DNA from: Candidatus Omnitrophota bacterium
GTDB taxonomy: Bacteria; Omnitrophota; Gorgyraeia; Zapsychrales; Zapsychraceae
NCBI GenBank assembly: GCA_050250375.1
Contig: JBFWOS010000001.1
Coordinates: 27,346-91,345, forward strand
Direction: 5' to 3'
DNA: 64,000 nucleotides
Shown: piece by piece, positions 30,104-52,519 of the stretch
Layout of the letters: every line of letters begins with the position of its first letter
Numbering within the stretch: position 1 is the stretch's first letter
The notes under the pieces: generated by a model
Databases searched by the model: none
What the model saw: the letters and a program-made list of their open reading frames with translations, nothing else
Told to the model about the DNA's origin: nothing
Translations under genes and position numbers: made by a program

Positions 30104-30142
30104 TTTAGATCCTCTCTTTAATCGGTTAAGAGAGGAATCGAA

Positions 30143-30453: not shown

Positions 30454-30456
30454 TAC

Positions 30457-30687
30457 TTATCCCTTATCCCTTTTAAATATTTCTCCCACCCGATACCTCA
30501 CCTCCCCGCCGCAGGCGTTTAGGGCGCGCACGATCTTCTCCTGGATATTGGGAGACACCGGACGCCCCGCGCGCGCTTTACGCACCTGCTTGAACGTCAG
30601 CTGCTCGGTAGAGGCCTTGACAAGATCCTCATTCGTCAGCCCGCGCTCGGTTAAAATGATATCGATGGGTTGGGGTTCAGTTGTCAT
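30457..30687 (-). CDS. hypothetical small protein
   Basis: 76-aa ORF, 20 nt downstream of the Bro-N gene. No domain recognised. Confidence 0.4.
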   Translation of the reverse strand: MTTEPQPIDIILTERGLTNEDLVKASTEQLTFKQVRKARAGRPVSPNIQEKIVRALNACGGEVRYRVGEIFKRDKG

Positions 30688-31650: not shown

Positions 31651-31664
31651 TATAGGGGATGAAT

Positions 31665-31945
31665 ATCTTTATACCATGCATGCGTGTGGGAGTCAATAAA
31701 ACGTTCAATAAGGATCTTTTATAACCGGTTAAATACACTCAATTGCCTGAGTTTTTTAAAAAGGATTTTGTAGGTGGAAGGTAAGTTGGATTTTGGCATA
31801 ATAAATTGTTTATTTTACGTTAAACGTTTAACCTTAAACCCCTCGGTCCTGTTTTTTCTGGATATTTCTTCCTTCTTTCTTCTTACTTCCTATTCTTTTT
31901 TTTCACAGATCCCTGATCCCTAAGATAGGGCGCTGTCCCGTATCT
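31665..31945. repeat. leader/uORF repeat family B, copy 2
   Basis: See 30143-30453. Directly upstream of the Bro-N gene. Confidence 0.8.
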
Positions 31946-33054: not shown

Positions 33055-33133
33055 TAAAAAACTTTCGTAATTTTTATTGAGGATTAGGCATTTAAAAGCG
33101 TTCTCAATCTATTATCGGAATAAATACATTCTA

Positions 33134-37050: not shown

Positions 37051-37589
37051 TTTCCTCCTAATAATTCCATCTGTTTACAAGCAGCGACTCGTTTAACCTG
37101 ATCAATAATTCGAGTTGACAAATGACATTCAATAATATCTCGCTCTCCATCAAACCAATCTAATTTACCATTTAGCCCTTCGAAAATTTGTAGAATACCT
37201 TGCGCGCTATAACCATTTCTATGATTCTGATCAACACAAATCATCATCTTCACTGCAAATTTTCTATTTCCCGCAAAATCATGAGCCTCTCCAATAGCAC
37301 CAGGACTTACCATTAAATTTATGATATAATCATACTCCTCTATCAAAATTTCTTCGGCCACTTTTACATTCAACCCTCTTAAATTCATATCCTCTTTATT
37401 GATTATTTCTTCTGGAAAATCTGCATCATGATTTAACTCTTTAAGCTTCATCCTTATTTCACAACGCTTCGCATATAAGTCCCCTCCACTGATACCTGGA
37501 CCAAAAATTAATATTTTTAGCTTACAGCCATCATGAATTCTACTGGCTGCCGCACGCAATCTTTTTAGATGTTTGTTAGTCATAACCAA
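37047..37589 (-). CDS. hypothetical protein, possible flavodoxin-like NDT/SLOG-fold enzyme
   Basis: KILIFGP...DYIINLMVSPGAIGEAHDFAG loosely resembles the NDT-superfamily xGTxxExG nucleophile motif. Weak assignment. Confidence 0.35.
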   Translation of the reverse strand: MVMTNKHLKRLRAAASRIHDGCKLKILIFGPGISGGDLYAKRCEIRMKLKELNHDADFPEEIINKEDMNLRGLNVKVAEEILIEEYDYIINLMVSPGAIGEAHDFAGNRKFAVKMMICVDQNHRNGYSAQGILQIFEGLNGKLDWFDGERDIIECHLSTRIIDQVKRVAACKQMELLGGK

Positions 37590-37605
37590 AATATCACCAA
37601 GCTTT

Positions 37606-38754
37606 TCACTTAGGCCTCATTAATAAAATAAGTTCGCAGGATTCCTTTCTGGAATCTCTTTTGGTGTTATTTCCACCCAGCGTGCTAAACCTCATCTTTA
37701 CTTTTTCCTTCTCTTGAATATCAAAAAATTGCATTGCTGTGTTTTTAACTTCTTCTCCTGATAAACCGTTGCTGCATTCCTCATTAGGAAAAGTAAATAT
37801 AACTGTAGCCCCGGACTCAGCAAGGTTACTTAAGAGATCAATTAACGCCTGTTTTGATTGTCCTTTATTGCTAAAGCTTGATTGAGGTCTTTTGGATATA
37901 TCAGGGTAGCGCCCCACACCGGAAACCTTTCCACACTCTTTATTGGCAATGGTTTCCAGGACATGATAAAAGCGGCTGTATTGAACTCCGGAATAAGGCG
38001 GGTCCACAAAGACAAGATCGGTGGGTCTCAATTTCTTGGCCTCGTCAATAGCATTTGCCACGCGAGCCTCGCCAATAGTCCTTGCATGCAACTTTGATAC
38101 TTCCGACAATGTTCTTTTGCACACATCAACCGGGTCTTTTTGCCAGGATTCCAACAAAAATTTCTTGGCCGTTCTGGTGGGTTGGAACGGCTGTGCCGTG
38201 TGTCCGGGAGAAGCCGCGCACCGACTAGCAGCCATGATGACGGCAGCTAAGCTCACCTTTTGATGAGTCAATTCTTGCGGAACATATTTTAATAAATAGT
38301 CAAAGGTCAGCGCTTGCTGCGGGCTGTAATAATGCCCTCCATAGGCATTCCAGATGGGGCCAATTGTTGACCGCTCTTCACAGAGTTCACGACAATCTTT
38401 AACATATTGACCCATCCTGCGCTTATCAAGCTTTGCGCTAAGCTTTTCAGCGGATATCCATAACTTCGATTCCCGCCTTAAATCGTCCACCCGATTAAGC
38501 CAATTTTCAGTAAGCTCCGATTCTTCAATAACCCTATTTCTTCCAATAATTGATTCCGTCAGGATAACGGAGTATTTCTGCAAATCTATTGCAAGCACCG
38601 GTAAGTCGGTGTGTCGAGCCACATGACACGCAACAGCCCCTGCCCCGCAAAAAAGATCCACAATCCGTTTAGCGGATTTGGCTTCTTCATCAAGCAACTT
38701 TCCCAAACCATTGGTGAGCATATACCGTTTTGAGCCCATGTATTTCATATACAA
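37606..38754 (-). CDS. Dam-family DNA N6-adenine methyltransferase with C-terminal extension
   Basis: YMGSKR at the N-terminus, DLFCGAGAV SAM motif, and DPPY catalytic motif. 382 aa versus about 280 for canonical Dam. Confidence 0.8.
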   Translation of the reverse strand: MYMKYMGSKRYMLTNGLGKLLDEEAKSAKRIVDLFCGAGAVACHVARHTDLPVLAIDLQKYSVILTESIIGRNRVIEESELTENWLNRVDDLRRESKLWISAEKLSAKLDKRRMGQYVKDCRELCEERSTIGPIWNAYGGHYYSPQQALTFDYLLKYVPQELTHQKVSLAAVIMAASRCAASPGHTAQPFQPTRTAKKFLLESWQKDPVDVCKRTLSEVSKLHARTIGEARVANAIDEAKKLRPTDLVFVDPPYSGVQYSRFYHVLETIANKECGKVSGVGRYPDISKRPQSSFSNKGQSKQALIDLLSNLAESGATVIFTFPNEECSNGLSGEEVKNTAMQFFDIQEKEKVKMRFSTLGGNNTKRDSRKESCELILLMRPK

Positions 38755-40031
38755 ATTCCTGTTAAGCCAATACGTTCACAACCGGAAAGTATCAAGAGTT
38801 CCTTTGATAATTTGGTACGCAACTCAAATACATTGTTAATCAAAGATGCATCTTGGTTAACATTATTTATAGTATCGTTAACTTCACTCCACATATCTAA
38901 CAAAGGATCGGTACTTGTATTTTCCCAAAGACCTCGATCTATACCCAATGGTTCCCACCAAAATTCTAAATCTTTTTTAGTTGTAGCTGTACATTCCATC
39001 AAGCGAGAGACTGACCCCGTAGATAACCTTAAGAGCAACATCGCTCGACATAACATTTGTATATGATATTTTTCGTCAGTGTAAGTTCCATTTTTTCTTG
39101 CTTCTATTAAAAGACGCGATCCAGGCAGTTTATTAGTTGGCCCCGATAATAAAGTACTTAACCTCTGTGATTCATTCTTAGAAATCCCCAAATTCTGCAT
39201 GACTTTAATTAATTGCTTTTTTGGAATACTGCTTTTTGAGCCATGTAGAGATCTAAAATATTTTTGCAGGGCTCCCCTAAACAACAAAAAATCTATAACA
39301 AAACTATTATTTTTTGAAGGGGTAAATGAATTCCACATTTCTGTAATTAAATTAAGCACTTCCTTAATATTTAAAGAGTTATATGGGGTTAAGTCAGAAG
39401 GTCTATAGCTAGCCTCATTTCTTACAGTTCTATCTTTTTCTAATATTTTCAAATCATGAATCCAATTTTTCAGCCAATCTTCAGCAAGCCATCCAATTGG
39501 AGAGCTATACCCTCCCGTTAATTCAGTAAACCAATCTTTAAGACAAATTCCTTCAGGTCTAATTATTTCCTCAATTAAATGGATAGCATTTGGTGATTTG
39601 GCCCAAACTTCAAATGCTTCTACTACTGCGACATGTGTTCCCTTTCCCGAAATTTTATGAATTCTTGAACTATCGATAGTAAAATGAATTTTATCAAATA
39701 TTCCAATTCCCTCTGCTGCCAAGAGCGACATAACCGCCCTTAACTCTGCATAATAGGCAAAATGTTTAGTCCGACTCCTGTCGCCCAATGAATAAGATAT
39801 TAGTGCTTTCCCCAGAAAATCCCACCCATCTAAACAATGCAAAGGTGTGGAGGCAGCTATATATTTTTTTATATCCCGCCTAATGTTTCCGGCCTTACAG
39901 TCTATTGAAATTTTTTTTATACAATTCTTTCTGTATCGATTATTAAAAATCCATCTATTAAGCTTGAAATCCTTTTTTAGAAGTTCAAAATTTTTCTCAG
40001 ATTCTATTCTTGAAAATGCAGAATATGGCAT
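38745..40031 (-). CDS. hypothetical protein
   Basis: 428 aa, AT-rich, translationally coupled to its neighbours. No domain recognised. Confidence 0.5.
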   Translation of the reverse strand: MPYSAFSRIESEKNFELLKKDFKLNRWIFNNRYRKNCIKKISIDCKAGNIRRDIKKYIAASTPLHCLDGWDFLGKALISYSLGDRSRTKHFAYYAELRAVMSLLAAEGIGIFDKIHFTIDSSRIHKISGKGTHVAVVEAFEVWAKSPNAIHLIEEIIRPEGICLKDWFTELTGGYSSPIGWLAEDWLKNWIHDLKILEKDRTVRNEASYRPSDLTPYNSLNIKEVLNLITEMWNSFTPSKNNSFVIDFLLFRGALQKYFRSLHGSKSSIPKKQLIKVMQNLGISKNESQRLSTLLSGPTNKLPGSRLLIEARKNGTYTDEKYHIQMLCRAMLLLRLSTGSVSRLMECTATTKKDLEFWWEPLGIDRGLWENTSTDPLLDMWSEVNDTINNVNQDASLINNVFELRTKLSKELLILSGCERIGLTGICI

Positions 40032-40039
40032 AGTATTTT

Positions 40040-41545
40040 TTACCTATTAAAACCTAAATGTTCAAAAACATTTTTGGCAACCGTTCCCAATTCTGTTTTT
40101 TCAACCATCAAATGTCTCAAAAGTTGACGACGAAACTCTCTATAACCACTTCCTCCTCGAAAAGCTAATTTTCGCAATCTTTCATTTTCCTCTAAATTAG
40201 GAGCACCTGATGATCTCCAATCAAACTTTGAGAGGGACTGAGTTAAATTATCAATAAAATCTATAATTTTCTTTTTACGTTTTAGATCTTTAATGGCTTC
40301 GTTTACTGAAATTTCGGCATCTGGGACATCTGATAATTTCCATGATTTAAGGTTGAGACTTACTGCTTTTTCGAAGAAAATGTCGTTGGTCACATTCAAC
40401 ACAACTGAAACACCTTGATCATTATTGAGCAATGAATGTGGCCCATCAAATGCTGGGTCATTATTCTTTTGCTTTTTATATTTAATACCCCTTAAATCTT
40501 TTGCCCATCCCGAGTTATTGTCTTCAACAAAATATTTTATTCTGTTCCAAAGATATATCAGGAAGGCCGCTTGTTGTGTCCTTGTCCAGGGGATAATGAT
40601 CTTGTGTTCCCCGACTCTTGCGCCATAAAGACCCCCTATTGAAACACCTTTACCTTCGTATGACTTTATATAACTTTTGAGCAAAGCTCTAATCCAAGCA
40701 GCTTGGGTAACAGCCCCAGCGCCACCCTCCCCTAACATATTTATTCGATGATACCAAACACTTTCCTGTTCGTACCATAATGACTCAGTAATTTCCTGCG
40801 CTCTTGCCTCTCTATATACTTTGTGCCCCTCAAATCTATCAAGCCAATCTTCCGTTCGCAACAATGGATAAAGGTCATAGGCTAAACTTGGATTAATCCT
40901 CTTTGGTTTTATATTAATCGTCCAAAATAAATATGCCTGCCAACTAATATCTAACTCATGAAAAGCCACAACAGGAAGCTGATAGTTTTCATCATCCAAC
41001 TTGTCATCAAAGGCCAATAACCGATGTTGTCCATCTATTATTTCTATTGGATGTTTCTTCTTTGGCTTCCAGTTTTTCCCTTTAAAACTTCTAGGCAATA
41101 TAACTTCAATGTCTGTTGAATTCTCTTCAATTTCAATTAAATCATTCTTGTCAACAGCCATATCGTTTCTTTCATCAGCCTTCCCTAAAATATTTACAAC
41201 TATCGCTGTAGGAAGCCACCCTGGTTTTCTCAAATTATTAAAAACTTCTTCTTTCCTTTTCGAACCTGATAATTCTGACCATGGATATCCATATTTAATG
41301 TACTCACGTATATTTGCTGAACGAGATGGCTCATGTTGTCTTTGTATATGTTTATCACTGGTTCTTGAAATTCCAGATTTAATTCCGCGTCTATATACAC
41401 CTGATAATAGTTTTAACTTCTTAGCGGAAAGAGAAAAAACATAAAAGAACTCTTTTGGCTTCTTTCTTAAGTTTTCTTTCTTAAATTCGATACCTTTCCA
41501 TTCATTCAACCACTGATGGATTTTCAATGCCTTTATTTTTTCCAT
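40040..41545 (-). CDS. DGQHR-domain protein (DndB/DpdB-like, ParB/Srx superfamily)
   Basis: IIDGQHRLLAF motif. 501 aa. Confidence 0.75.
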   Translation of the reverse strand: MEKIKALKIHQWLNEWKGIEFKKENLRKKPKEFFYVFSLSAKKLKLLSGVYRRGIKSGISRTSDKHIQRQHEPSRSANIREYIKYGYPWSELSGSKRKEEVFNNLRKPGWLPTAIVVNILGKADERNDMAVDKNDLIEIEENSTDIEVILPRSFKGKNWKPKKKHPIEIIDGQHRLLAFDDKLDDENYQLPVVAFHELDISWQAYLFWTINIKPKRINPSLAYDLYPLLRTEDWLDRFEGHKVYREARAQEITESLWYEQESVWYHRINMLGEGGAGAVTQAAWIRALLKSYIKSYEGKGVSIGGLYGARVGEHKIIIPWTRTQQAAFLIYLWNRIKYFVEDNNSGWAKDLRGIKYKKQKNNDPAFDGPHSLLNNDQGVSVVLNVTNDIFFEKAVSLNLKSWKLSDVPDAEISVNEAIKDLKRKKKIIDFIDNLTQSLSKFDWRSSGAPNLEENERLRKLAFRGGSGYREFRRQLLRHLMVEKTELGTVAKNVFEHLGFNR

Positions 41546-41579
41546 AGTTTTCCCCTATATTTGTTATTCTACGGATTAT

Positions 41580-43103
41580 TTATGTTCTCTCAAACGCCTC
41601 CCGCAACACCGCTCGCATCAGCATTTCGGAGTGGTCTTTGCGTTCGGCGACTTGTTTATCAAGCTCACCGACCATGATCGTAAACTTATCCACCAGGTTG
41701 ACGATAACTTGTTGTTCAATCACAGAAGGGACAGGAACTACAAACTGTTCAAGATTGTATTTAGGAAGACCTTCCCGTCCAGCACCTGTAGTAGATTCGA
41801 ACATCACCTTTTGGAATTGCGGTGATAAAACTATTTTGTGCATAAATCCTTTAGACATTAAAATACTTCGAATAATACAAACGTGTTGACTTACATTTCC
41901 TTCTCTGAAATCTACTGGAATTAATGCACACCGCCCAAGAGATCCGCCAGTAATATTTAACAGTAAATCGCCAGCAATGACAGCTGTTCCTTTCATCTGT
42001 TTATGTACTTCGGAGGATATAAATTTTATATCGTCACAATCTAAGCCATCGTCATGAATATTCTGAGACCTAAAAAATAAAATTCCTTTTGTTGAGTAAT
42101 TACTCCCTTTCGGAGTACTTCCTGAACCAATCTTCGAACAAAGATCACCCAACCGACACCATTCCCACCCCTCCGGCAACTCAAAGGGTTTTTCTTCATT
42201 GGTTATTGGTGATAATGGTTTTTCTTTTTTAATTTTCCCTTCCTTAATCAGTCGTTCTTTCTCTGCCTTAATTCTCTCAAGCAACTTTGAGGCATGGTTT
42301 TCGCCGCTGATGAGTTTAGGATTTTCTTTGCGCCATTGGGCTGTCAATTTACCTTCAATGGCTTCCTGCAAAACAGATTGACGAAGATTGTAAAGCAAAG
42401 CTTCTTGAGTCTCGACTTCATCTTTAAATAACTGTCGTAAACAATTTATATTCTTAACTCTATTGAATTTCAATTTCGCTGTATGAAGGATTTCACTCCT
42501 TGAAAGCTCTCCTGTATTCTTATAATGTACAATCTTATTTTGCACGTCCACAGAACAGGCAGGAAACATTAGCTGTTTCATTTTCTCCGCATTTACATTT
42601 GGTTGCGCTGTCCCATTTTTCATTTCAAGAATTTGATTCCAAAAAAGATACGAATTCAAAAAAAGATAAATATATTCGGGATTAAAGCTGGCATTAACTG
42701 TCAACCGAATCAAGTAACTTGCGAACACGCAATTTGTTGGAATATTTTTGATAAATACTGTTTTACCAGTTGTACCACCTGTTCGCGTTATTAAAATATC
42801 CTCTTCATTTAATGAATACTTTTTTAGCTCTTTACAGTCACAAAAAGGTACAGACGGCCAATCTATTACGCCCTCAGTAATGTCGGTAATACGGAGCAAC
42901 TTGCTATTCCCATCAAGCTTTGCAGATGTAGTATAACCATACTGGGTCTTAGTTAGAGCATCCCCCAAAGGAATAAAATTCTTGTAAGTATCAGCAATGA
43001 TTTTCATTAATACCGTGTTATGTAGCTGCCTTAACTCTTCTTCGTTAGATTTAATAAATGTAAGTTTGCGATAGCCATACTCAGGAACAAAAGAATTAAC
43101 CAT
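41580..43103 (-). CDS. hsdS: Type I restriction-modification specificity subunit
   Basis: Two target-recognition domains separated by a conserved central coiled-coil (ELPEGWEW...). Conserved C-terminal region. Confidence 0.85.
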   Translation of the reverse strand: MVNSFVPEYGYRKLTFIKSNEEELRQLHNTVLMKIIADTYKNFIPLGDALTKTQYGYTTSAKLDGNSKLLRITDITEGVIDWPSVPFCDCKELKKYSLNEEDILITRTGGTTGKTVFIKNIPTNCVFASYLIRLTVNASFNPEYIYLFLNSYLFWNQILEMKNGTAQPNVNAEKMKQLMFPACSVDVQNKIVHYKNTGELSRSEILHTAKLKFNRVKNINCLRQLFKDEVETQEALLYNLRQSVLQEAIEGKLTAQWRKENPKLISGENHASKLLERIKAEKERLIKEGKIKKEKPLSPITNEEKPFELPEGWEWCRLGDLCSKIGSGSTPKGSNYSTKGILFFRSQNIHDDGLDCDDIKFISSEVHKQMKGTAVIAGDLLLNITGGSLGRCALIPVDFREGNVSQHVCIIRSILMSKGFMHKIVLSPQFQKVMFESTTGAGREGLPKYNLEQFVVPVPSVIEQQVIVNLVDKFTIMVGELDKQVAERKDHSEMLMRAVLREAFERT

Positions 43104-44529
43104 TCTGAACTGCTTCCTTAAGTTTCTTTAAAAGTTCTTCACTCTTGCAAAACGAATCATGAAGCGTGGCGACCAGCTCTGCGCTTGAATAGACGTGTTC
43201 CGCTTCAGGCATGTGTGGATTTTTAATGTCGAGGTTATACCCATTAGTTGCTATCGTTTCGATCGAAACTTTCCAGACCTGTTCGCTTTTTTTACGTTTC
43301 TTCCACCATTTCTTTAGACCATCGAATTCACTTTTCTGTATCGGTTTAGTCTTATTATAAGCCTTTACCCCTTCCGGCAATTTGTGTTCCCAATACCAAA
43401 CCTCTTTTGTAGGCTTGCCTTTGTCGAAGAATAGAAGATTTGTCGCAACGCTCGCATAAGGTTGAAAAACCGAATTAGGCAGACGCACTATCGTATGTAA
43501 ATTGCAATTCTCCAATAGATGTTGACGTATCCGTTGCTTAACTCCGTCTCCCGTCAGCGATCCGTCCGGTAGTACAATACCTGCGCGCCCCCCGTCTTTG
43601 AGATAACGGATCATCAACATTAAGAAAAGATCGGCACTTTCTGCGGTGCGGAAATTCTGCGGAAAATTGGTTTCGACTCCATCCGTAACCGAAGCACCAA
43701 AAGGAGGATTGGCAAGGATGACATCAACCCGGTCTTTTTGTCCGATGGATGTATATTCGCGATTAAGGCTATCAGTATAATCAATATTGGGGACTTCAAT
43801 GTCATGGAGGATAAGATTAGTGACGGCCAACATAAAAGGAAGCGGCTTAAATTCCATTCCGTGAATCGTTTTTTCAAGTTCCTTCAGGTCATCAACGCCC
43901 TTAACATCCTGCGTGCGAATATTCTCGATTGCACTCGTTAAGAAACCGCCGGTGCCGCAGGCGGGATCCAAAACTTTCTCACCTAACCTTGGATTTACCA
44001 TTTCCGTAATAAATTCGGTCAGAGCGCGCGGGGTGTAGAATTCCCCGTAATTGCCGGCGTTTTGAAGATCGCGCAGGATGGTCTCATAAATATCGCCAAA
44101 AACGTGACGGTCCTCGGCTTTGTTAAAGTCAATCTGGTTTAACGCGTTAATCACCTGGCGGAGGATGGTGCCGTTTTTCATATAGTTGTTTGTGCCGTCA
44201 AATATTTCACGGACAATAAGCGCGCGTTTATTGCCGGTGCTCACGTCTAAATTCTTTAGTTGAGGAATTAGTTTGCCATCAATAAAACTTTTCAGCTCAT
44301 CCCCCGTCATCCCCTCATCATCAGCGGCCCAATTACGCCATTGTAATTCCTTGGGGATCACCGAAACATATTTATTATTGATTAACTCCATTTCCTGATC
44401 TTTATCATCCAAAACCTTGAGGCTGATCATCCAGCCCAATTGTTCGATGCGCTGGGCGTCTCCAGACACGCCGGGGTCTCTGCGCATAATGTTTTGTAAA
44501 CTTTTAATGATACCGCCAAGATTCTTCAT
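43096..44529 (-). CDS. hsdM: Type I restriction-modification DNA methyltransferase subunit
   Basis: HsdM N-domain, DPACGTGGFL SAM motif and NPPFG catalytic motif. Confidence 0.9.
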   Translation of the reverse strand: MKNLGGIIKSLQNIMRRDPGVSGDAQRIEQLGWMISLKVLDDKDQEMELINNKYVSVIPKELQWRNWAADDEGMTGDELKSFIDGKLIPQLKNLDVSTGNKRALIVREIFDGTNNYMKNGTILRQVINALNQIDFNKAEDRHVFGDIYETILRDLQNAGNYGEFYTPRALTEFITEMVNPRLGEKVLDPACGTGGFLTSAIENIRTQDVKGVDDLKELEKTIHGMEFKPLPFMLAVTNLILHDIEVPNIDYTDSLNREYTSIGQKDRVDVILANPPFGASVTDGVETNFPQNFRTAESADLFLMLMIRYLKDGGRAGIVLPDGSLTGDGVKQRIRQHLLENCNLHTIVRLPNSVFQPYASVATNLLFFDKGKPTKEVWYWEHKLPEGVKAYNKTKPIQKSEFDGLKKWWKKRKKSEQVWKVSIETIATNGYNLDIKNPHMPEAEHVYSSAELVATLHDSFCKSEELLKKLKEAVQNG

Positions 44530-44538
44530 TAACTCTCC

Positions 44539-46944
44539 TTACGCAACGGCATAAAGCTCATGCTCCAACTCTTTGATGGCCAGGATGTATTGATCACGGC
44601 CGCCAAAGGATTGAATAATTTCCGTTGGTGTTCCCATTTGATTAAACGGCTCGATTTTTAAGACTGAAAGGTCTTCAATATTCTCAATGCCTTCATCCGC
44701 ATATTTATCCAACAGGGCGTTGAGAACGGCACGCGCTTTGTTGCCGTATTTGGTGAAATAATTGCGTTTTTTAACTCCTTCGGCTCTTTCTTTGCGTGTG
44801 AGAGCCGGCATATCCCAGGCGATATGACAAATCAGATCAAAAATATCTAAATCTTTCTTTGTTTCCTCCAACAAATTCTCCAGAATAATGCCTTTCGATT
44901 CTAGTTCTTCGACAATCGCTTGTTTTTTATGAGTGCTATTCCACCTGGCGAGAAATTCGTTCAAGGTGTGAAACTCTTTTATAATACTTCTTTTCGTATA
45001 GTCAATTAAGGTCTCGGTCATCAGTTTGCCGTTGGCATCCAAATGCTGGACACGTTCATTCAAAATGGACACATCCACGCCAGCGACAAAGATTTTTGGA
45101 CTCGGATCAGATGTTATTGGTCCCCCCCCCACAATTTCAGGCGGAGGATCATAGATGGTAGTTCCATCTCCTTCAAAATCAACAGGCTCATCGGTTTCAG
45201 GATCGATGACTTCCTGATCATCTAAAGGATCAATAACTACATCTGTTATCTCCTCATCTCCATTAATTTCTTTGATCATGACCGGATCTCCGTCAAACTT
45301 AGAGTCGGCAAAAAGATTGGTGACACTGCGAAAATCCATAATCGTAAAATATGTTTTATCGTATACTTCGTTAATACGCGTTCCGCGGCCGATAATCTGT
45401 TTGAACTCGGTCATGGATTGAATATTTGACTCAAGAACAATCAATTTGCAGGTTTGCGCGTCAACACCGGTGGTCATCAATTTTGAAGTGGTGGCAATGA
45501 CAGGATAAGTTTCTTCGGGATTAATAAAATTATCCACTTCGCGCTTACCTTCGTCATTATCGCCGGTTATACGCATGACATATTTATAGTTCTCCAAAAC
45601 CAAATCTGAATTTTCAATGGCCAGGGCTTGTCGCATCCGTTCGGCATGTTCGATATCTACACAAAAAACAATGGTTTTGTCAAAACGATTTGTCTTTCTT
45701 AAAAACTCAGTTATCTTCTTGGCCACTATTTTTGTCCGATCATCAATAACCAAATTTTTGTCAAAATCTTTAGTGTTATAGACCCGGTCTTCGACCTCGT
45801 TACCGTCTTTGTCTTTCTTGCCTAATTCCGGGCGCCAGCCTTCCAGATCGGTATTGATTCCGACTCGGATAACCTTGTAAGGCGCCAGAAACCCGTCCGC
45901 GATACCCTGCTTGAGCGTGTAGGTGTAAACAGGTTCACCAAAATAATCAATATTAGAAATTGTCTTTGTTTCCCGCGGGGTTGCAGTAAGTCCGATATGT
46001 GTAGCGGATTTAAAATAATTAAGAATCGCTTTCCACGCGTTGTCAGACGCCGCGCTTCCGCGATGGCACTCATCAACAACCACTAAATCAAAAAAATCAG
46101 GACGGAATTGTCTATACGCGTCCTTATCCTCATTATCATTTGTCAGTCCTTGATAAAGGGCTAAATAAATTTCGTAGGCTTTGTCAATCTGGTGTTTTTT
46201 GATAACAGTCATTTTTTCTTTAAAATGCTTAAAATCATTGCGCTTGGTTTGATCAATCAGAATGTTACGATCCGCCAGAAAAAGTATTCGCTTTTTCCTG
46301 CCGTTTTTCCAAAGCCGGTAGATGATTTGAAACGCCGTGTAGGTTTTTCCTGTGCCGGTGGCCATGACAAGGAGCACTCTATTCTGCCCGCGGGCGATGG
46401 CTTCAACAGTTCGATTAATCGCGATTTGCTGATAGTAGCGCGGGGAACGTCCTGAACCATCGTAAAAATAGTCGAATGAAGCGGCTTGTTCCTCCTCGGG
46501 AGTTTCAATATTTTTAAACTTTTTGTATATTTGCCATAATTCAGCGGGGGAAGGAAAATTGTCCAGGGAGTATTCTTTTTCGATCGGCATCGTGAGTCCG
46601 GAAAAATCATGCTGGATAAAGCCGTCGCCGTTAGAACTAAAGGCGAGCGGAACATCCAATATCTTTGCGTATCTTAAGGCTTGTTGTAACCCGGAACCTA
46701 CTGAATGGTTGTTATCTTTTGCTTCAATGACAGCGATGGGAATATTGGGTTTAAGATAGAGAATAATGTCGGCACGTTTTCGTTCGCCACGGACCGATTT
46801 TTTACCCTTAACAAAGATACGGCCGTCAGTAAAATACACTTCCTCACGAATCTGTTTTGATAAGTCCCAACCCGCTTTAAGTATGGCCGGCAAAATGAAT
46901 TGGGTGCAGATATCGCGTTCCGAGAGTTCTTTTTTGTTGGTCAT
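44539..46944 (-). CDS. hsdR: Type I restriction enzyme R subunit (EcoEI-like C-terminus)
   Basis: MTNKKELSERDICTQFILPAI N-terminal nuclease domain, TGTGKT and DECHR helicase motifs, and an EcoEI_R_C-like C-terminal domain. Confidence 0.9.
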   Translation of the reverse strand: MTNKKELSERDICTQFILPAILKAGWDLSKQIREEVYFTDGRIFVKGKKSVRGERKRADIILYLKPNIPIAVIEAKDNNHSVGSGLQQALRYAKILDVPLAFSSNGDGFIQHDFSGLTMPIEKEYSLDNFPSPAELWQIYKKFKNIETPEEEQAASFDYFYDGSGRSPRYYQQIAINRTVEAIARGQNRVLLVMATGTGKTYTAFQIIYRLWKNGRKKRILFLADRNILIDQTKRNDFKHFKEKMTVIKKHQIDKAYEIYLALYQGLTNDNEDKDAYRQFRPDFFDLVVVDECHRGSAASDNAWKAILNYFKSATHIGLTATPRETKTISNIDYFGEPVYTYTLKQGIADGFLAPYKVIRVGINTDLEGWRPELGKKDKDGNEVEDRVYNTKDFDKNLVIDDRTKIVAKKITEFLRKTNRFDKTIVFCVDIEHAERMRQALAIENSDLVLENYKYVMRITGDNDEGKREVDNFINPEETYPVIATTSKLMTTGVDAQTCKLIVLESNIQSMTEFKQIIGRGTRINEVYDKTYFTIMDFRSVTNLFADSKFDGDPVMIKEINGDEEITDVVIDPLDDQEVIDPETDEPVDFEGDGTTIYDPPPEIVGGGPITSDPSPKIFVAGVDVSILNERVQHLDANGKLMTETLIDYTKRSIIKEFHTLNEFLARWNSTHKKQAIVEELESKGIILENLLEETKKDLDIFDLICHIAWDMPALTRKERAEGVKKRNYFTKYGNKARAVLNALLDKYADEGIENIEDLSVLKIEPFNQMGTPTEIIQSFGGRDQYILAIKELEHELYAVA

Positions 46945-47175
46945 TTGCTTTTAAACTATGGATTGAGAAAATTGATTCATTTCTTTATATCATTATTTAA
47001 GCTTTGATTTTCTAATTTTTCCAAGTATTTTTTAAATTCAAAATGTATCTATATTACAATTTACCTCTCACCGCTCCACCTTCCCCTCTCCCCCCTTACA
47101 GGGATCGGGGATCAGTGATCATTGGTTGGCCCGTTATGCTCTTGAAGAGAATCATACTAAATTTTCTGTTTGTCG

Positions 47176-47616
47176 TCATCGGTCAACCTTTTCTTCGTCT
47201 CCAGGACACGCCGCAAACTCGCAATCCGGCGGGATTCTTCCTACGTAACTGCCGTCGGCGCATTGTTTGGCGTCCATTGTGCACGCATGCGTGCTCTTGG
47301 TGTTATGAGCAGGAGTGCAGCTGGATATAAATAAAGAAAGAAGAAGGAAGAAGAAAGAGGGGAGAAATTTATTGACCGTTGGGCTATTGGGTATATGGGT
47401 AAATGGGTATATGTGTTTATGCGGGGTTATGACTGTTGGGCGGATAAAGTCACACGTCACAAAGTCACATGTCACATGTGACTTGTGTCCTGTGACGTGT
47501 GACATTGCTTGACCACCGGTCACTGGTCCCTGATCCCTATTTTTTCCGCAAATTTTCATACAGAACCTTTCCTTCACGGTCAAAGATCGTGTCGCTGAGG
47601 ATCGCATTGTTTTCAT
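47176..47616 (-). CDS. hypothetical; Cys-rich C-terminal peptide preceded by repeat-C-encoded lipoprotein-signal-like segment
   Basis: The ORF spans repeat C. The repeat encodes ...NKFLPSFFFLLLSLFISSC (lipobox-like), followed by TPAHNTKSTHACTMDAKQCADGSYVGRIPPDCEFAACPGDEEKVDR. The true start is unclear. Confidence 0.3.
   Translation of the reverse strand: MKTMRSSATRSLTVKERFCMKICGKNRDQGPVTGGQAMSHVTGHKSHVTCDFVTCDFIRPTVITPHKHIYPFTHIPNSPTVNKFLPSFFFLLLSLFISSCTPAHNTKSTHACTMDAKQCADGSYVGRIPPDCEFAACPGDEEKVDR
47331..47506. repeat. repeat family C, copy 1 (open in one frame)
   Basis: Purine-rich tract, TTGACCGTTGGGCTATTGGGT..., then the perfect palindromes GTCACATGTGAC and GTGACGTGTGAC. The second copy is at 48160-48316. 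Confidence 0.8.
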
Positions 47617-49111
47617 AGACCACTTCGGCCATGAGATACCCGTCAGGATGGTAGATCCTGTTCGGTCCGTCCGGGAGGCCTTCCCGGGATGATATCGTCT
47701 CCATGAGCCGGCCGTCTTTATAATAATATGTGAGGGTCCCGGTCACGGGCTGGCCGGATTCATCAACCAGCCGGTTGTTTTTATAATGCATGACATGCGA
47801 CAGTTCCCCATCCGGGAAATACTCTTTGTAATCACCATCAAGCTGATAATTACGCGACGATCCGGAGGTCTTGATCACCCCGTTGGGATAATAAAGCGTA
47901 AACACGGACTCATTGCCGCCGATCGCCTGCGACAGGAAGGCGACTTTCCCGTCAGGATAATAACGGATGTGCCTGATTTGCTGGCGCTGGTTATATTTGA
48001 TTTCCTGCATCACTTCCCCGTTTTTGAAGTAATTACGCGCCACTGCTGTGCCGTCGTTTTCCTGGGTCATATCTGAAAGAAGATTACCGGAGTCGTCATT
48101 CACCCGGGAGTATGAAGCGGGGACGGCGGCATAGAGCAAAGGAGAAAAACTGGTTATCAATAAAGAAAGAAGGAAGATAAAAGAAGGAAGAAATTTATTG
48201 CCCGTTGGGCTATTGGGTTTATGGGTAGATGGGTATATGTGTTTATGGGGGGTTATGACTGTTGGGCGGATAAAGTCACATGTCACATGTGACTTGTGTC
48301 CTGTGACGTGTGACATTATCCATTCCTTCATCTTCATGAGCCTGCCGTTGGTGGCCTGCAGTTCGGCAAAATCCAGATACAGTGAAACGATAAGATTGAG
48401 CTGTTTTAATTCCGGTTCGGACAAATAGTTCTTGGCGATGACGGCATCCTGCGCGGTAACATAATTATTTTTTAAGCTGGTCAGCCCCATTAGAGGCTTA
48501 CGGCTGTCCGCGCGTTTCTCGATGATCTCGGCCGCGGTGTGGCCGTGAACGGCATAATGCATCTTATTTTGCACAGTGGCGAAGAATTCCTGGGTCAGTT
48601 TGTCGTTAACCTTGTAATCAATGCTGGTGGCGTAAATATCGGTCACTTTCTGGTAAAAATTGCGCTCACTGCTGCGGATGTCACGGATACGTTGTAGAAG
48701 TTCTTCAAAATAACGCGCCCGGCCTCCGCCTGCCTTAAGCCGTTCATCATCCAGCGTAAAGCCTTTAACGATATATTCCCTGAGCCGTTGGGTGGCCCAA
48801 ATGCGAAATTGCGTGCCCTGCAATGATTTCACACGGTACCCGACAGAGATAATGACATCCAGATTGTAATAATTGGTCGGTTTGGTAGAAAATTCGGAAT
48901 TTCCGAATTTTCTCATCGTTAGTTCCTCAGATAATTCTTTCTCTTGGTAGATATTCTGAATATGTTCATTAATCGTAGATTTTGATTTATCAAAGAGTTC
49001 CGCCATCTGGTCTTGAGACAACCAGACTGTTTCATCTTCAATCTTAACCCGTAGTTTTGTCTGCCCATCGTCAGTTTTGTAAATAATAATCTGCGGTTCC
49101 GGTTTTTTCAT
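47537..49111 (-). CDS. composite ORF: RhuM-family N-terminal region joined in-frame through repeat C to a MORN-repeat (YwqK-like) lipoprotein region
   Basis: Residues 1 to about 257 match RhuM/DinD-family proteins (IIIYKTDDGQTKLRVKIEDETVWLSQDQMAELF...). The repeat-C-encoded segment follows (HVTGHKSHVTCDF...NKFLPSFIFLLSLLITSF). Then MORN-like repeats (YYPDG..., YYKDGRL...). Likely a fusion created by the repeat insertion, or two genes. Confidence 0.5.
   Translation of the reverse strand: MKKPEPQIIIYKTDDGQTKLRVKIEDETVWLSQDQMAELFDKSKSTINEHIQNIYQEKELSEELTMRKFGNSEFSTKPTNYYNLDVIISVGYRVKSLQGTQFRIWATQRLREYIVKGFTLDDERLKAGGGRARYFEELLQRIRDIRSSERNFYQKVTDIYATSIDYKVNDKLTQEFFATVQNKMHYAVHGHTAAEIIEKRADSRKPLMGLTSLKNNYVTAQDAVIAKNYLSEPELKQLNLIVSLYLDFAELQATNGRLMKMKEWIMSHVTGHKSHVTCDFIRPTVITPHKHIYPSTHKPNSPTGNKFLPSFIFLLSLLITSFSPLLYAAVPASYSRVNDDSGNLLSDMTQENDGTAVARNYFKNGEVMQEIKYNQRQQIRHIRYYPDGKVAFLSQAIGGNESVFTLYYPNGVIKTSGSSRNYQLDGDYKEYFPDGELSHVMHYKNNRLVDESGQPVTGTLTYYYKDGRLMETISSREGLPDGPNRIYHPDGYLMAEVVYENNAILSDTIFDREGKVLYENLRKK
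48160..48316. repeat. repeat family C, copy 2
   Basis: See 47331-47506. Confidence 0.8.
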
Positions 49112-49398
49112 TTATCTTCCTCCAATTTTCCTAAATTTTCTTTTCCTGCGTTTATGTTTGCATTGATTGAATGCTTCTACCCGGCGCATGGATTGTTTAG
49201 GTTAATTGGGTATACCGTTTAAGGTTTAAGGCGTAACGTTTAAGGTTAAAAAGGTTATTATATCAATTCTTGAAAGATTTGGTCCTTGATTTCTTTCGTA
49301 TATCCTATCCGTTTACTTAGGCGTTGACAACATATGTATGTATATACTTTAATTAAACATTTAAGGATCGGGGCATCCCGGTCGGATGTTAAAGGCGG

Positions 49399-49548
49399 TC
49401 ACTGCCAGTGCGGGGGCCGCCTACTTTTTTGGTAAAATAACCAGGCCGCTTCCTTGGTATTTCCCCCTCCCAAAACAAAAATCGGGTAATCCTTGTCCAC
49501 AATCAGCAAATTGTGATCCCCGGATTCATCTAAGAACATAATTTTCAT
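49399..49548 (-). pseudogene. short ORF fragment (DUF3800-like N-terminus?)
   Basis: MKIMFLDESGDHNLLIVDKDYPIFVLGGG... runs 49 codons and ends. Below the ORF-track size cutoff. Weak. Confidence 0.25.
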
Positions 49549-49559
49549 ACCGTAAATCC

Positions 49560-49736
49560 TTAATTAACTTCGTATCCAATGCATAAAGCAACCGGTTCTT
49601 TTTTGGGATCGCCGTTTTGGGCGATCAGGTAACAGGCGTACCGGGTTAACATAATATCATCGACTTGCCTTTGCCCCCCCTTACCTAGGACGATCATTTT
49701 GTTGACGTCAACAAAATGATCGGAGATGTTCTGCAT
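49560..49736 (-). pseudogene. short ORF fragment with Bro-N/RhuM-like motif
   Basis: 58 codons: ...[24 protein letters not shown]. Preceded by the same GGCGCATGGATTGTTTAGGT repeat that precedes the RhuM gene. Confidence 0.3.
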
Positions 49737-50236
49737 GTCCGTCTCTTCCTTAATACAATGTTGTTTTTAATGCATTTTGGTCAGGGGGATTTTCTTCATT
49801 GATTTTACCCGGCGCATGGATTGTTTAGGTCAATAGGATATAGGGAACAGGCATCTCGGCCCGCAGCATTCGCTGCGAAGCGGCGAGACGGGCGCCTGTT
49901 CCGTACGAAATTGATATTGATATTAATTTTGTATTGTTTTTTGTTCGTTTTGATAAATTATTATACACAAAATTTTTCGCATTTCATCAGCAAAATGAGG
50001 GTTGGCACTATCCTTTCCGGGCTTTGTGCTATCTTTTTTCTACCTTTTGGGCGGATTGGGAGGATTTTAAGGGATCAGGGGTCAGGGATTAGGGATAATC
50101 TTGACCGTTGGGCTTATGCTGTTATTAGTTATTAGTGGTGAGTGATCTGTGATCAGTCGTTTGACCGTTGGGTTAATGCTGTTATCCAATCCAGGGATCT
50201 GATCACCCGTTTGCTGACCATCAATTACCCGAGTTG

Positions 50237-50632
50237 TTAGTCTGACTTATTTATCAATGACTTTAGGATTTGCGCAAACCCCTCTTTATCAAGATTTCCT
50301 GTAGCCAGTTTCATCATTCCATCGTACAATTTCTGATCCTGGTCAAGAATTTCAATGCCGTTTAATTCAAGAAATACCAGAGCAGCTGCCAGCCCTGTTC
50401 TTTTATTCCCATCGATAAAAGGCTGATTCTGGGAAATATGAAACGCATAGGCGGCAGCCTTCATGCTTAGATCGCCATGGAGGTAATCCCCCTGAAATGT
50501 TGCCTGCGGTTGTGACAACGCCGATTGAAGCATTTCCATATCTCTGAGTCCGGGTTTGCCGCCATATAAATCGAGTTGGTTTTGATGGATTTCAATGATT
50601 TCGGCGAGGGTCAGAAAAATAAATTCATTCAT
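50237..50632 (-). CDS. doc: Doc (death-on-curing) family toxin, Fic fold
   Basis: FIDGNKRTG matches the Doc variant of the Fic motif. Confidence 0.85.
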   Translation of the reverse strand: MNEFIFLTLAEIIEIHQNQLDLYGGKPGLRDMEMLQSALSQPQATFQGDYLHGDLSMKAAAYAFHISQNQPFIDGNKRTGLAAALVFLELNGIEILDQDQKLYDGMMKLATGNLDKEGFAQILKSLINKSD

Positions 50633-50639
50633 CGTTTGA

Positions 50640-50867
50640 TTATTTGGCCAATTTCTTTAATGTACCGGCATGGTTCTTATTGACTTTTGTCAGAGCAGTA
50701 CGAAAGGCCTTTTCTCTGGCCTTGTCCCGGACCGGAGAGATTATAATATTCGTCCCATCGGTTGACACTTCCAGCGGAGTATCTTTGTCAATCTTCAGGA
50801 TCTGTAAAATTGCCTTTTCAATGACTAGGGCCTGGCTGTTTCCGTGTTGGGTTAAAGTTTTGATCAT
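50640..50867 (-). CDS. AbrB/MazE-type antitoxin (Phd-like partner of Doc)
   Basis: 75 aa, directly upstream of doc with an 8-nt gap. Contains LTQHGNSQALVIEKAIL. Confidence 0.65.
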   Translation of the reverse strand: MIKTLTQHGNSQALVIEKAILQILKIDKDTPLEVSTDGTNIIISPVRDKAREKAFRTALTKVNKNHAGTLKKLAK

Positions 50868-50950: not shown

Positions 50951-51134
50951 AGAAGAAAGATGAAAGATGAAAGAAAAGTTATAAAAGTTTAAGGTTTGAC
51001 GTTTAAGGTTAAGGAACTAACAAGACACAAGTGACAAACAAATTCCATTGTTCAACATTCAATAACCAAACAGGATTATTTTTTGTTTGGATTTTGTTGT
51101 TTGTGATTTTTTTGTACCTTGTCTCTTGTTTCTT
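50951..51134. repeat. repeat family D, copy 1
   Basis: Purine-rich tract, AAAGTTTAAGGTT(TGACGTTTAAGGTT), then CAAATTCCATTGTTCAACATTCAATAACCAAACAGGATTATTTTTTGTTTGGATTTTGTTGTTTGTGATTTTTTTGTACCTTGTCTCTTGTTTCTT. Second copy at 52290-52460. Both lie upstream of TA-like operons. Confidence 0.8.
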
Positions 51135-51159: not shown

Positions 51160-51852
51160 TTAAGTCTTTTCTAATTCGTTTAATAGGCCGATATCTTCTG
51201 TTTGTCGCAAGGCATCAATTATCTTTTTCTGCCAATTAAAGGGTATCGTTTTATATGCTTTTTTAATACTGGATATCTGTTGATGGTTGATTAACGCCTT
51301 TAAAACAATCATCGCGGTCTCTTGATCTTTAATCGTTTTTTCTTTCTTAAGGCGTCTGGGAGCAATGATCAATTTATGCAATGCAAAATTAGCCGGATGC
51401 GGTAGTTTTATCGTCATCTGATCAATCTTCACTTGTATTATATTTTGCGTAAGCATCTCCAGAAATCGTAAGGCAGTCGCGTTGACTCCTAACGATGGTA
51501 ACGGGTACGGCTTTTCGCGGCCCCTTCCCCGTTCAGGAGTTAAGAATTCAAGAATCAATTCCGGATGGTCCAGTTTAATATATCCCTGAGCGCCTTTAAA
51601 CGTTGTAATAAACCCCAAATCTTTGAGTAATTCCGGAATATCCACCTTTACTTTTATGGATGCGGGATGATCAATCAAAAAATCGATATCCCGCGTAATC
51701 AACGTTATCTTTCTTAAATCATCCTGACCGGAAAAGTATTTTTCATAAAATACAACACACCAACTTCCGATCAGAATAAGTTCAGAAAGTATTTTCTGTT
51801 TATGAAAACGCTGCAATACATCAAGACACAGATCATATTGCTTCTTTTCCAC
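51160..51852 (-). CDS. nucleotidyltransferase-fold protein (possible AbiEii/MNT-like toxin)
   Basis: LIGSWCVV...ITRDIDFLI follows the GS-x(n)-DxD polymerase-beta NTase pattern. Confidence 0.6.
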   Translation of the reverse strand: MEKKQYDLCLDVLQRFHKQKILSELILIGSWCVVFYEKYFSGQDDLRKITLITRDIDFLIDHPASIKVKVDIPELLKDLGFITTFKGAQGYIKLDHPELILEFLTPERGRGREKPYPLPSLGVNATALRFLEMLTQNIIQVKIDQMTIKLPHPANFALHKLIIAPRRLKKEKTIKDQETAMIVLKALINHQQISSIKKAYKTIPFNWQKKIIDALRQTEDIGLLNELEKT

Positions 51853-52225
51853 GCAATGCTCCCTGAAGATATTTAATCTGTTTTTTCACTTGTGATAAAT
51901 GACTTCGGTATTTTGCCCGCAATTTCTTAGCATCGTCATACCTTTTGATTTCATCTTTTGGCAGTTTACCTTGATAGATGTGTTTTACTTTCTGACCGAT
52001 CCTTTTGACCAGATAATAATATTCGTTATTTTTGATGATCTTTTTGGATAAGCACCCTTCAGGCAGTTTCTTAAGGGCAGACTCATACTCTTTTTTCATA
52101 CGCAAAGAATTTTTCAACTCTTCCTTTAAAACCCCTTTTATAACACCTCTCATAACAGCCTCCTGGTTACCTAACAAACTATACTTAAATATAACTTGTT
52201 TGGTAACCCCTGTCAACTTTTTCAT
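51833..52225 (-). CDS. hypothetical Lys-rich small protein, putative cognate partner of the NTase
   Basis: 130 aa, overlaps the NTase start by 20 nt. No domain recognised. Confidence 0.35.
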   Translation of the reverse strand: MKKLTGVTKQVIFKYSLLGNQEAVMRGVIKGVLKEELKNSLRMKKEYESALKKLPEGCLSKKIIKNNEYYYLVKRIGQKVKHIYQGKLPKDEIKRYDDAKKLRAKYRSHLSQVKKQIKYLQGALRGKEAI

Positions 52226-52289: not shown

Positions 52290-52460
52290 TAGCTGGGAGA
52301 AGAAAGAAAAAAGAAGAAACATTAAAGAAGAAATAATAAAAGTTTAAGGTTATGGATTCTAAACAAATTCCATTCTTCAACATTCAAAAACCAAACAGGA
52401 TTATTTTTTGTTTGGATTTTGTTGTTTGTGATTTTTTTGTACCTTGTCTCTTGTTTCTTG
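52290..52460. repeat. repeat family D, copy 2
   Basis: See 50951-51134. Confidence 0.8.
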
Positions 52461-52519
52461 TTACTTCTTAGATTTTCTTTCCTCTTTCTTCTTCCATCTT
52501 CCTTCTCATTAAGTTCTCA

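Follow-up and report, generated by a model that had tools for sequence, protein, structure and literature searches.

Repeat C, the subject of this analysis, is a composite repeat present as two direct copies on the minus strand of a 64,000-nt stretch of DNA (the window) from a metagenome-assembled genome (MAG) of a Candidatus Omnitrophota bacterium (assembly GCA_050250375.1, contig JBFWOS010000001.1, positions 27,346 to 91,345). The copies are associated with three genes on the same strand: a small Cys-rich lipoprotein gene, a MORN gene and a truncated rhuM gene. The features concerned, in window coordinates, are as follows.

47311..47507, minus strand: repeat C copy 1, with an internal ATG at 47506-47504 and the lipobox Cys codon at 47319-47317
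~47506-47446, minus strand: heptamer array of copy 1, GTCACAY/GTGACNT, hairpin-forming
47441-47429, minus strand: head 1 of copy 1, GCCCAACAGTCAT
~47424-47388, minus strand: octamer array of copy 1, CCCATAYA
47384-47372, minus strand: head 2 of copy 1, GCCCAACGGTCAA
~47367-47331, minus strand: polypyrimidine heptamer array of copy 1 (TTCTTCC-type), followed by the hydrophobic-core end
48140..48317, minus strand: repeat C copy 2, with its parts in the same order as copy 1 and an internal ATG at 48316-48314
47176..47559, minus strand: small Cys-rich lipoprotein gene, whose ATG at 47559 overlaps the 3' end of the MORN gene; absent from the public annotation
47537..48175, minus strand: MORN_2/YwqK-like exported protein, with core FLLSLLITSFSPLLYAAVPA at 48175-48116 and a mature domain running to the stop at 47537
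48317..49111, minus strand: rhuM', the first 265 codons of rhuM with the last 66 codons gone; homology ends at the upper edge of copy 2

Repeat finding and pairwise alignment gave 93% identity between the copies. One block (D8, 47341-47461 and 48167-48287) is 93% identical and a second (D12, 47461-47506 and 48272-48317) is 100% identical, and weaker similarity (D14) reaches 47311 and 48140, which is why the copy limits were set there. Relative to copy 1, copy 2 lacks 15 nt in the heptamer array and 3 nt in the pyrimidine array, and both indels preserve the frame. Arrays of period 7 or 8 run throughout both copies according to Tandem Repeats Finder, but they are short and imperfect, with only 2–3 perfect units each. 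The heptamer array folds into a hairpin of -32 (-32.5) to -43 kcal/mol (z -4.3 to -6.2; 0 of 200 shuffles fold as well), and in copy 1 this hairpin begins ~30 nt past the MORN stop, with GTGACGTGTGAC and GTCACACGTCAC forming the outer stem. Two sequences had been described as perfect palindromes in a first-pass annotation of this DNA; GTCACATGTGAC is one, but GTGACGTGTGAC is not, and its complement GTCACACGTCAC is present in copy 1 only. Both copies are free of stop codons in one common minus-strand frame, as that annotation had reported together with the correct peptide, and also in one plus-strand frame, with 3–6 stops in each of the remaining four. Taken alone this open frame is weak evidence, since at least one open frame occurs in ~20% of mononucleotide shuffles of a single copy, the polypyrimidine part cannot hold a stop codon in any frame, and copy 2 is a recent duplicate and not an independent observation. 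Openness gains meaning only together with the corresponding leaders of related genomes, which are open too.

The exported protein downstream of copy 2 is the C-terminal part of a 524-aa open reading frame (ORF), named "RhuM family protein" by NCBI, in which MORN_2 (PF07661) scores 54.4 bits against a Pfam gathering cut-off of 29.6. The last ~200 aa of this ORF are 75–81% identical to stand-alone MORN_2 proteins of 226–240 aa, and five close homologues (P0001-P0005), 56–81% identical, carry PF07661. The ratio of non-synonymous to synonymous substitution rates (dN/dS) for the mature domain is 0.12–0.17 between the window and its relatives and 0.16–0.24 among the relatives, indicating purifying selection on the mature MORN domain for most of its history. 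The hydrophobic character that had been noted for the end of repeat C is genuine; the top hydropathy windows are FLPSF(F/I)FLL..., and repeat C supplies the N-terminal half of each core. A foreign origin for this hydrophobic end is not borne out by comparison with the native N-termini of homologues: the last ~36 nt of copy 2 (48175-48140) encode FLLSLLITSFSP, the 5' half of the native MORN signal-peptide core, the window core FLLSLLITSFSPLLYAAVPA aligns without gaps with the orthologue cores PFLTLLLLFLAPAAHC, SLITLLLLFYAQAAYC and PLITLLILLLVSFALP, and the tblastn match of P0003 starts at 48172, within copy 2. The repeat thus brought no foreign signal sequence.

All MORN orthologues start with ATGCGC (MR[V/T]L..K.F), and they differ in how much repeat-derived sequence follows, between the n-region and the hydrophobic core.

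L005 (P0003): no repeat-derived residues; an ordinary 229-aa precursor with a classical signal peptide
L007 (P0002): ~33 repeat-derived residues
L021 (P0284): ~84 repeat-derived residues
L006 (P0001): ~105 repeat-derived residues

These leaders are open in the coding frame only, with 0 stops versus 9 and 14 in the other two frames for L006, and 0 versus 10 and 5 for L007. The leaders of L006 and L021 differ by a clean in-frame indel of a 60-nt module flanked by CTTATCACT, and a blastn match of 84% identity over 70 nt links the part of repeat C with the octamer array to the L006 leader. The real statistical support for repeat C "staying open" is this occurrence of in-frame repeat modules in the MORN leaders of relatives. 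Comparisons across the locus relied on blastn, because a first multiple DNA alignment was too disrupted by indels. The MORN coding region (47537-48128) was only 79–83% identical to relatives, with synonymous divergence (dS) of 0.6–0.96, versus 95–96% on the DUF3800/Bro-N side (49262-49661). This step in divergence suggests a recombination breakpoint in the repeat-filled leader and exchange of the MORN segment.

Copy 1 lies in the leader of the lipoprotein gene, which reads MKICGKNRDQGPVTGGQA, then repeat C, then ...LFISS/C and the mature part CTPAHNTKSTHACTMDAKQCADGSYVGRIPPDCEFAACPGDEEKVDR, and copy 1 continues the frame set by the ATG at 47559. That copy 1 precedes a small Cys-rich peptide was a sound observation, and the domain is real and widespread: at E<=1e-3, 4987 cluster representatives match the 48 aa that follow copy 1. 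The recurring unit is a module of ~30 aa, CxxDAKxCxDGSxVGRxxPxCEFxxCP (47179-47322, minus strand, in the window), often found in 2–12 tandem copies in secreted proteins. Short homologues have a lipoprotein or Sec signal peptide immediately before the module, and Pfam, NCBIfam and PDB hold neither a family nor a structure for it. In L021 an orthologue, MNIRANNNDGALGAGPWGALLLLCLAQAS/CTPAHNPESTAPVACTMDAKQC...KVDR, follows MORN directly, the two genes overlapping at the ATG of the orthologue, and codons derived from heptamers separate its n-region from its core; L007 likewise has an overlapping lipoprotein start, MNICGKNSDQGSVIGDQ.... The lipobox-like end previously described holds for copy 1, in which ...LLLSLF-I-S-S-C fits the pattern [LVI][ASTVI][GAS]C (the L021 orthologue has ...LLLLCLAQAS-C), but not for copy 2, in which F replaces C. 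Residues before the Cys number 80 from the ATG at 47559, 62 from the ATG at 47506 and 29 in L021, against the ~15–25 of typical short-n-region geometry. No start codon (ATG, GTG or TTG) separates the repeat from either hydrophobic core, and an exported product of either gene therefore requires translation through the repeat. The motif GGTGGAGCGGTGAG occurs directly after the MORN stop in L006 (1138-1165) and after the lipoprotein gene in the window (47060-47100, minus strand), a placement suggesting that L006 lost its lipoprotein gene by deletion between arrays.

There are also signs of sequence exchange between the two leaders in the relatives. The DNA of the L021 lipoprotein core, TTATTGCTTCTCTGCCTCGCGCAAGC, equals the L005 MORN core at 23 of 26 positions, a score reached by none of 2000 shuffles. 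In L007 an identical 33-nt heptamer mosaic, TCAGGGATCAGTGATCGGTGATCAGTTTTCTAA, occurs in both leaders (908-940 and 1626-1658) in one codon phase, giving QGSVIGDQFS twice, and this mosaic has no relation to the sequence of repeat C. Hydrophobic-core DNA common to both leaders was sought in the window and in viral contigs, and none was found. The pattern of the same repeat in the same frame of both genes thus recurs in the lineage and is best explained by gene conversion or duplication between adjacent, partly homologous leaders. Independent acquisition by two unrelated targets does not fit with genes that are ancestral neighbours and whose signal-peptide cores are already homologous in relatives.

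Upstream of copy 2 lies the rhuM fragment, and, as had been recognized, copy 2 joins the N-terminal part of RhuM in frame to the MORN protein. The RhuM part is shorter than typical but comprises 265 aa, not about 257; by tblastn, residues 1-265 map to 49111-48317, ending ...MKMKEWI. In the 524-aa ORF the RhuM family PF13310 (profile positions 17-208 of 252; 311.5 bits versus a cut-off of 33.7) precedes MORN_2. Lacking profile positions 209-252 and the C-terminal tail, rhuM' has neither a complete domain nor the usual homologue length of 326–345 aa, and the nearest homologue, P0160 (331 aa, 92% identity), continues ...MKMKDWIEKLDEFLK... beyond the breakpoint. The 66 missing C-terminal residues were found nowhere in the window by tblastn, and the idea of a repeat-MORN-repeat cassette inside rhuM, with the C-terminus displaced past copy 1, was dropped on that ground. 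Among the best 120 of 7998 RhuM homologues (E<=1e-50), all 261–375 aa long and carrying PF13310 only, there was no RhuM-MORN fusion, nor was there one among the MORN orthologues, suggesting that the fusion is derived and unique. An ancestral fusion would be expected to leave full-length RhuM-MORN proteins free of the repeat, and these were looked for and not seen in the homologues searched. Truncation of rhuM at the repeat stands, but insertion of the repeat does not seem to be its cause; rather, the 5' part of the MORN gene, with its repeats, appears to have received a fragment of rhuM. The 261-aa RhuM protein P0163 (L020, 4001-4786) was considered as a second truncation at the same place and rejected, being the result of an unrelated TGG-to-TAG nonsense mutation with the remainder of the gene intact downstream; that its nonsense codon falls two codons before the window breakpoint is a coincidence and not a common event. 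The closest full-length rhuM genes (L019, L020) were likewise rejected as a source of the 5' junction, their upstream sequence differing from that of the window.

Between rhuM' and the conserved DNA further upstream there are three more features.

49112..49189, minus strand: 25-codon ORF, MRRVEAFNQCKHKRRKRKFRKIGGR and a stop, starting caatccATGCGC, located where relatives have their MORN start, with a stop adjoining the rhuM ATG (49111)
49195..49261, minus strand: AACCTTA-type heptamer array, between the conserved intergenic region and the ATGCGC start
49262..49466, minus strand: DUF3800 3' end and intergenic region, 95–96% identical to relatives until ~20 nt before their MORN start

By its position, the 25-codon ORF is possibly a relic of the MORN start and n-region that was cut off by the rhuM fragment. 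L006 and L021 likewise have arrays of this kind ahead of their MORN start. The motif (A)TCCATGCGC(CGGGTA) opens the short ORFs before Bro-N (49821, minus strand) and rhuM (49189, minus strand), occurs in L005 at 4627 and 6001 and also opens the MORN gene in relatives, and it may be a common leader or regulatory module. A promoter-like -10 element, AATTTTGTGTATAATAA, lies further upstream at ~49965 in the window and at 1-17 in L006.

Taken together, these patterns lead us to favor, with somewhat better than even confidence, the view that repeat C is a translated, repeat-filled leader segment that was copied between two adjacent, co-oriented genes for exported proteins. It would be a leader-coding patchwork of ~180–200 bp, made of a hairpin-forming heptamer array and two head/array modules and ending in the native core. 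In this lineage repeats would be tolerated where the charged beginning of the signal peptide gives way to the hydrophobic core; the ribosome would translate them into a low-complexity spacer, and the frame would be kept by selection acting on the exported domain. Gene conversion or duplication, aided by cores that were already homologous, would then swap sequence between leaders, and this exchange could explain why one repeat, in one frame, precedes both genes. In a separate event rhuM codons 1-265, with their ribosome-binding site, would have become attached precisely at the 5' edge of copy 2, cutting MORN off from what was apparently its own start at 49189; MORN would consequently be made only as a chimera of RhuM' (265 aa), spacer, hydrophobic segment and MORN, or from the hairpin ATG at 48316, which has a Shine-Dalgarno-like AAGGAA seven bases upstream, both inside the hairpin. 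Parsimony favors copy 1 as the template and copy 2 as the copy, for then no coincidence is needed to explain why the 5' boundary of copy 2 is the rhuM junction. Repeat C is on this evidence a local curiosity and not a spreading signal-peptide cassette, with such leaders being the rule for this gene pair in the lineage, and the fusion with rhuM arose secondarily, by rearrangement within a defence locus undergoing decay.

Several observations count against this view. Repeat C is very probably translated, but the case for that comes from open-frame statistics. Thirteen codons differ between copies 1 and 2, 5 synonymously and 8 non-synonymously, so the frame has been kept and the peptide sequence has not; this is as expected for a tolerated spacer, and it also means that the peptide itself is unconserved. 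A spacer of 45–65 residues before the core is far outside normal signal-peptide geometry, and export may be impaired or may proceed in a signal-anchor mode. A hairpin of -32 kcal/mol encloses both the internal ATG and its AAGGAA. The more diverged MORN segment may have been imported, which would complicate the order of events. Sequence after the ATGCGC at 49189 has no significant similarity to the relatives' n-regions and is nearer to the leader upstream of Bro-N. Lastly, the collection scans described below left out the source genome, in which more copies of repeat C could yet be present.

An alternative explanation could be that repeat C is a non-coding intergenic mosaic, akin to the enterobacterial REP/BIME elements or cyanobacterial STRRs discussed below, whose hairpin stabilizes or terminates the upstream transcript and whose open frame is incidental. 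This would accord with the neutral-looking substitutions between the copies, the ease with which shuffled sequence stays open, the strength of the hairpin and its place just after the MORN stop in copy 1, and a decaying locus in which Bro-N, DUF3800 and rhuM are all truncated. Moreover, every other array of period 7 or 8 in the window is intergenic or only at ORF ends: of 35 such arrays 23 are purely intergenic and 4 touch only ORF 3' ends, and just the 8 of repeat C lie deep within long ORFs. We nonetheless regard it as unlikely, because neither exported domain can be made unless the repeat is translated, the frame is kept by both indels that distinguish the copies, the 33–105 repeat-derived codons of relatives are open in the coding frame only, the mature MORN domain is under purifying selection, and the larger intergenic mosaics (131–253 nt) have stops in every frame, unlike repeat C (two shorter single modules of ~56 nt do have an open frame). 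It would further imply that the 524-aa and 146-aa ORFs are artefacts and that the MORN and lipoprotein genes are dead or start at unrecognized codons. A phase-variation switch, in which gain or loss of one 7-nt unit toggles the frame of the exported domain in the manner of the CTCTT repeats of Neisseria opa, is attractive in that the unit is not a multiple of three, arrays stand between the start codon and the core in two genes and several relatives, leader length differs among all relatives examined, and, as in opa (PMC3960869), a stretch of the hydrophobic core comes from the pyrimidine repeat. It seems to us quite improbable, given that short imperfect arrays slip poorly, such arrays are common in ordinary intergenic DNA, alleles differ by whole modules or multiples of three with no single-unit changes, and five MORN alleles and two complete lipoprotein alleles are all in frame (in L007 the contig ends before the lipoprotein ORF does).

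The first-pass annotation had preferred a mobile signal-peptide module or 5'-exon-like cassette that inserts upstream of genes and supplies a start codon and export signal. Each copy does have its own ATG and hydrophobic stretch in frame before an exported domain, and 93% identity implies recent copying, yet the two known copies lie 830 nt from each other, in genes that were already neighbours in the ancestor, their hydrophobic end is MORN's own and a hairpin encloses the ATG. Within the window, probes for three of its parts detected no further copy of the repeat. Scans of collections used one single exact 19-mer each: TTATGACTGTTGGGCGGAT against 185,579 species-representative genomes gave only one chance match, in a Bacillota coding region, the source genome evidently not being among the representatives, and CATAAACACATATACCCAT against JGI metagenomes gave 11 matches, essentially all chance, with L012 and L013 showing octamer-like arrays without repeat C. 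The repeat-encoded 70-aa peptide had zero candidates among 5.8 billion proteins, a weak null since the 524-aa protein itself is present in the searched collection and yet went unmatched. Terminal inverted repeats are absent, every inverted repeat being internal to the heptamer array with none joining both ends, and the flanks of neither copy contain a target-site duplication or duplicated bases beyond the element; identification of repeat C as a miniature inverted-repeat transposable element was rejected for want of both. Mobility of this kind is accordingly given very little credence. Least credible of all is an assembly artefact, with the junction of rhuM', repeat and MORN, or the duplication, arising from repeat-induced misassembly. 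The source is a MAG and an independent Logan contig (L004) does break within copy 1, at window position 47452, but the 524-aa ORF is identical on two NCBI contigs, of 360 kb (GCA_050181705.1, JBFXCX010000004.1) and 1.2 Mb (a second assembly, in which the region is identical). In addition, the 15-nt indel comes right after 46 identical bases, so that 150-nt reads could distinguish the copies, and a truncated rhuM abutting a copy of repeat C holds under any arrangement.

Tandem arrays of short units are known from other bacteria, and there are both likenesses and differences. Heptamer direct repeats of Beggiatoaceae (TAACTGA), Cyanobacteria and Bacteroidetes are mostly intergenic, near start or stop codons (MacGregor 2015, PMC4679880). 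They occur rarely in ORFs, and then at the protein periphery, with reverse-orientation repeats tolerated at the very start or end of a protein (PMC4679880). The window resembles the Beggiatoaceae and cyanobacterial cases, and long simple-sequence repeats, in its many, mostly intergenic 7-nt tandem arrays, and differs in its many unit sequences, its conserved head GCCCAACGGTCAA, its Omnitrophota host and a ~190-nt composite that is apparently translated within two signal peptides. TAACTGA was not among the Tandem Repeats Finder consensus units of the window. To our knowledge none of the unit sequences of the short tandemly repeated repetitive sequences STRR1-3 is among the window's array units either. 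Elhai and co-workers reportedly described in 2008 small dispersed repeats of ~20 nt in Nostoc/Anabaena with tandem heptamer arrays, nested or concatenated, and we know of no description of their translation inside signal peptides. The repetitive extragenic palindromic sequences and bacterial interspersed mosaic elements (REP/BIME) of enterobacteria are intergenic mosaics of a hairpin-forming palindromic unit and short motifs between co-transcribed genes. Repeat C is similarly modular and starts with a hairpin, but there is no sequence kinship, and its two copies in the window are both inside ORFs and kept open. No RAYT-type transposase was seen, though no search was aimed at one. In Neisseria opa a pyrimidine-rich CTCTT coding repeat in the leader-peptide region underlies phase variation (PMC3960869). 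Common to opa and repeat C is a pyrimidine-rich tandem unit, not a multiple of three, in a leader-coding 5' region; opa tracts, however, are long and perfect and switch at ~1e-3 per generation, whereas the tracts described here are short and degenerate, with every allele seen in frame. Rfam (at gathering thresholds and at E<=1) had no family for repeat C, reporting only a tRNA-Val elsewhere and a meaningless miRNA match, and a full-text literature search for "Omnitrophota" with "heptamer" returned no paper.

If the favored view of a translated, copied leader segment is right, tandem-repeat mosaics that are usually held to be non-coding clutter can persist as translated signal-peptide spacers, and exchange of such sequence can maintain the likeness between the leaders of two adjacent genes. 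There is also a consequence for annotation, in that the public 524-aa "RhuM family protein" is a chimera of truncated rhuM and MORN, and the conserved small lipoprotein gene beside it is uncalled. Should the arrays switch frames, they would constitute a contingency mechanism in Omnitrophota, in which almost no gene regulation is known; otherwise this is a well-explained local rearrangement of modest general importance.

Gene order in relatives (L005, L007) is Bro-N, DUF3800, MORN, and the ancestral layout is, judging from the relatives, Bro-N, DUF3800, MORN and the small Cys-rich lipoprotein gene with its ATG overlapping the MORN 3' end. In the window DUF3800 (49399-49548, minus strand) has an internal deletion of ~610 nt compared with L005, leaving 49 of 242 aa, and Bro-N (49560-49736, minus strand) has lost ~160 nt, leaving 58 of 114 aa; gene decay through deletion is frequent at this locus. 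A promoter-like TTGTCA-17-TAGGAT lies at 49330-49302 on the minus strand, and relatives carry the site with one spacer base changed. A scan for sigma-70 promoters and terminators found sites to be no more numerous than in shuffled sequence. A run of defence-type genes occupies 34195-46944 (minus strand) and encodes an ORC/CDC6-like 951-aa protein, a D12-class methyltransferase, a DndB-like protein and type I restriction-modification HsdS, HsdM and HsdR; a Fic/AbrB-like pair lies at 50237-50867, and Bro-N and DUF3800 count among the same defence-type neighbours.

The heads of repeat C belong to a set that extends over the window, in which the 13-mer head GCCCAACGGTCAA (consensus GCCYAACRGKCAW) has 9 sites versus 0.95 expected, each followed by an array of 3–5 units.

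18725, 19358 and 31987, plus strand: head sites
47372, 47429, 48198, 48255, 50101 and 50161, minus strand: head sites
47090..47145, minus strand: head AGCATAACGGGCCAACC with an AATGATC ACTGATC CCCGATC CCTG module, 3' of the lipoprotein stop, with stops in all three frames

The extended head is (AACAGCATAA)GCCCAACGGTCAA, with a conserved part of ~13–23 nt, and modules are sometimes concatenated, for example two at 50190-50060. Array units are diverse, including GATCCCT, ACCTTAA, TTCTTCC, GTCACAT, CTGATCA and others, and such arrays are missing from a 12.7-kb stretch of the relative L005 whose flanks share 95% identity with the window. These head and array modules look like a modular mini-repeat family for which no described counterpart was found. 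It is conceivable, but in our estimation decidedly unlikely, that undescribed "head + heptamer-array" mini-elements colonize both intergenic DNA and n/h junctions of signal peptides, where they would be translated and, via unit slippage and conversion between neighbouring leaders, would modulate the length of exported proteins or serve as contingency switches. This would be an opa-like mechanism in a nanobacterial phylum that is uncultured and possibly dependent on hosts. Examples of arrays in the window are at 3143-3169, 18742-18768, 20928-21017, 26023-26099, 30305-30472, 49217-49247, 50070-50136 and 52298-52506. Four mosaic families (D1, D2, D3 and D5) lie between minus-strand genes at 20845-21023, 25860-26112, 30142-30394, 31654-31910 and 32989-33069; they are <=247 nt long with 3–5 copies, although a short D3 polypyrimidine motif has up to 9, and they hold ACCTTAA and TTCTTAC arrays, with stops in every frame. 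A direct repeat of 99 nt, 98% identical between 51036-51134 and 52361-52459, flanks a DUF6788 / NTP_transf_8 gene pair (51160-52225).

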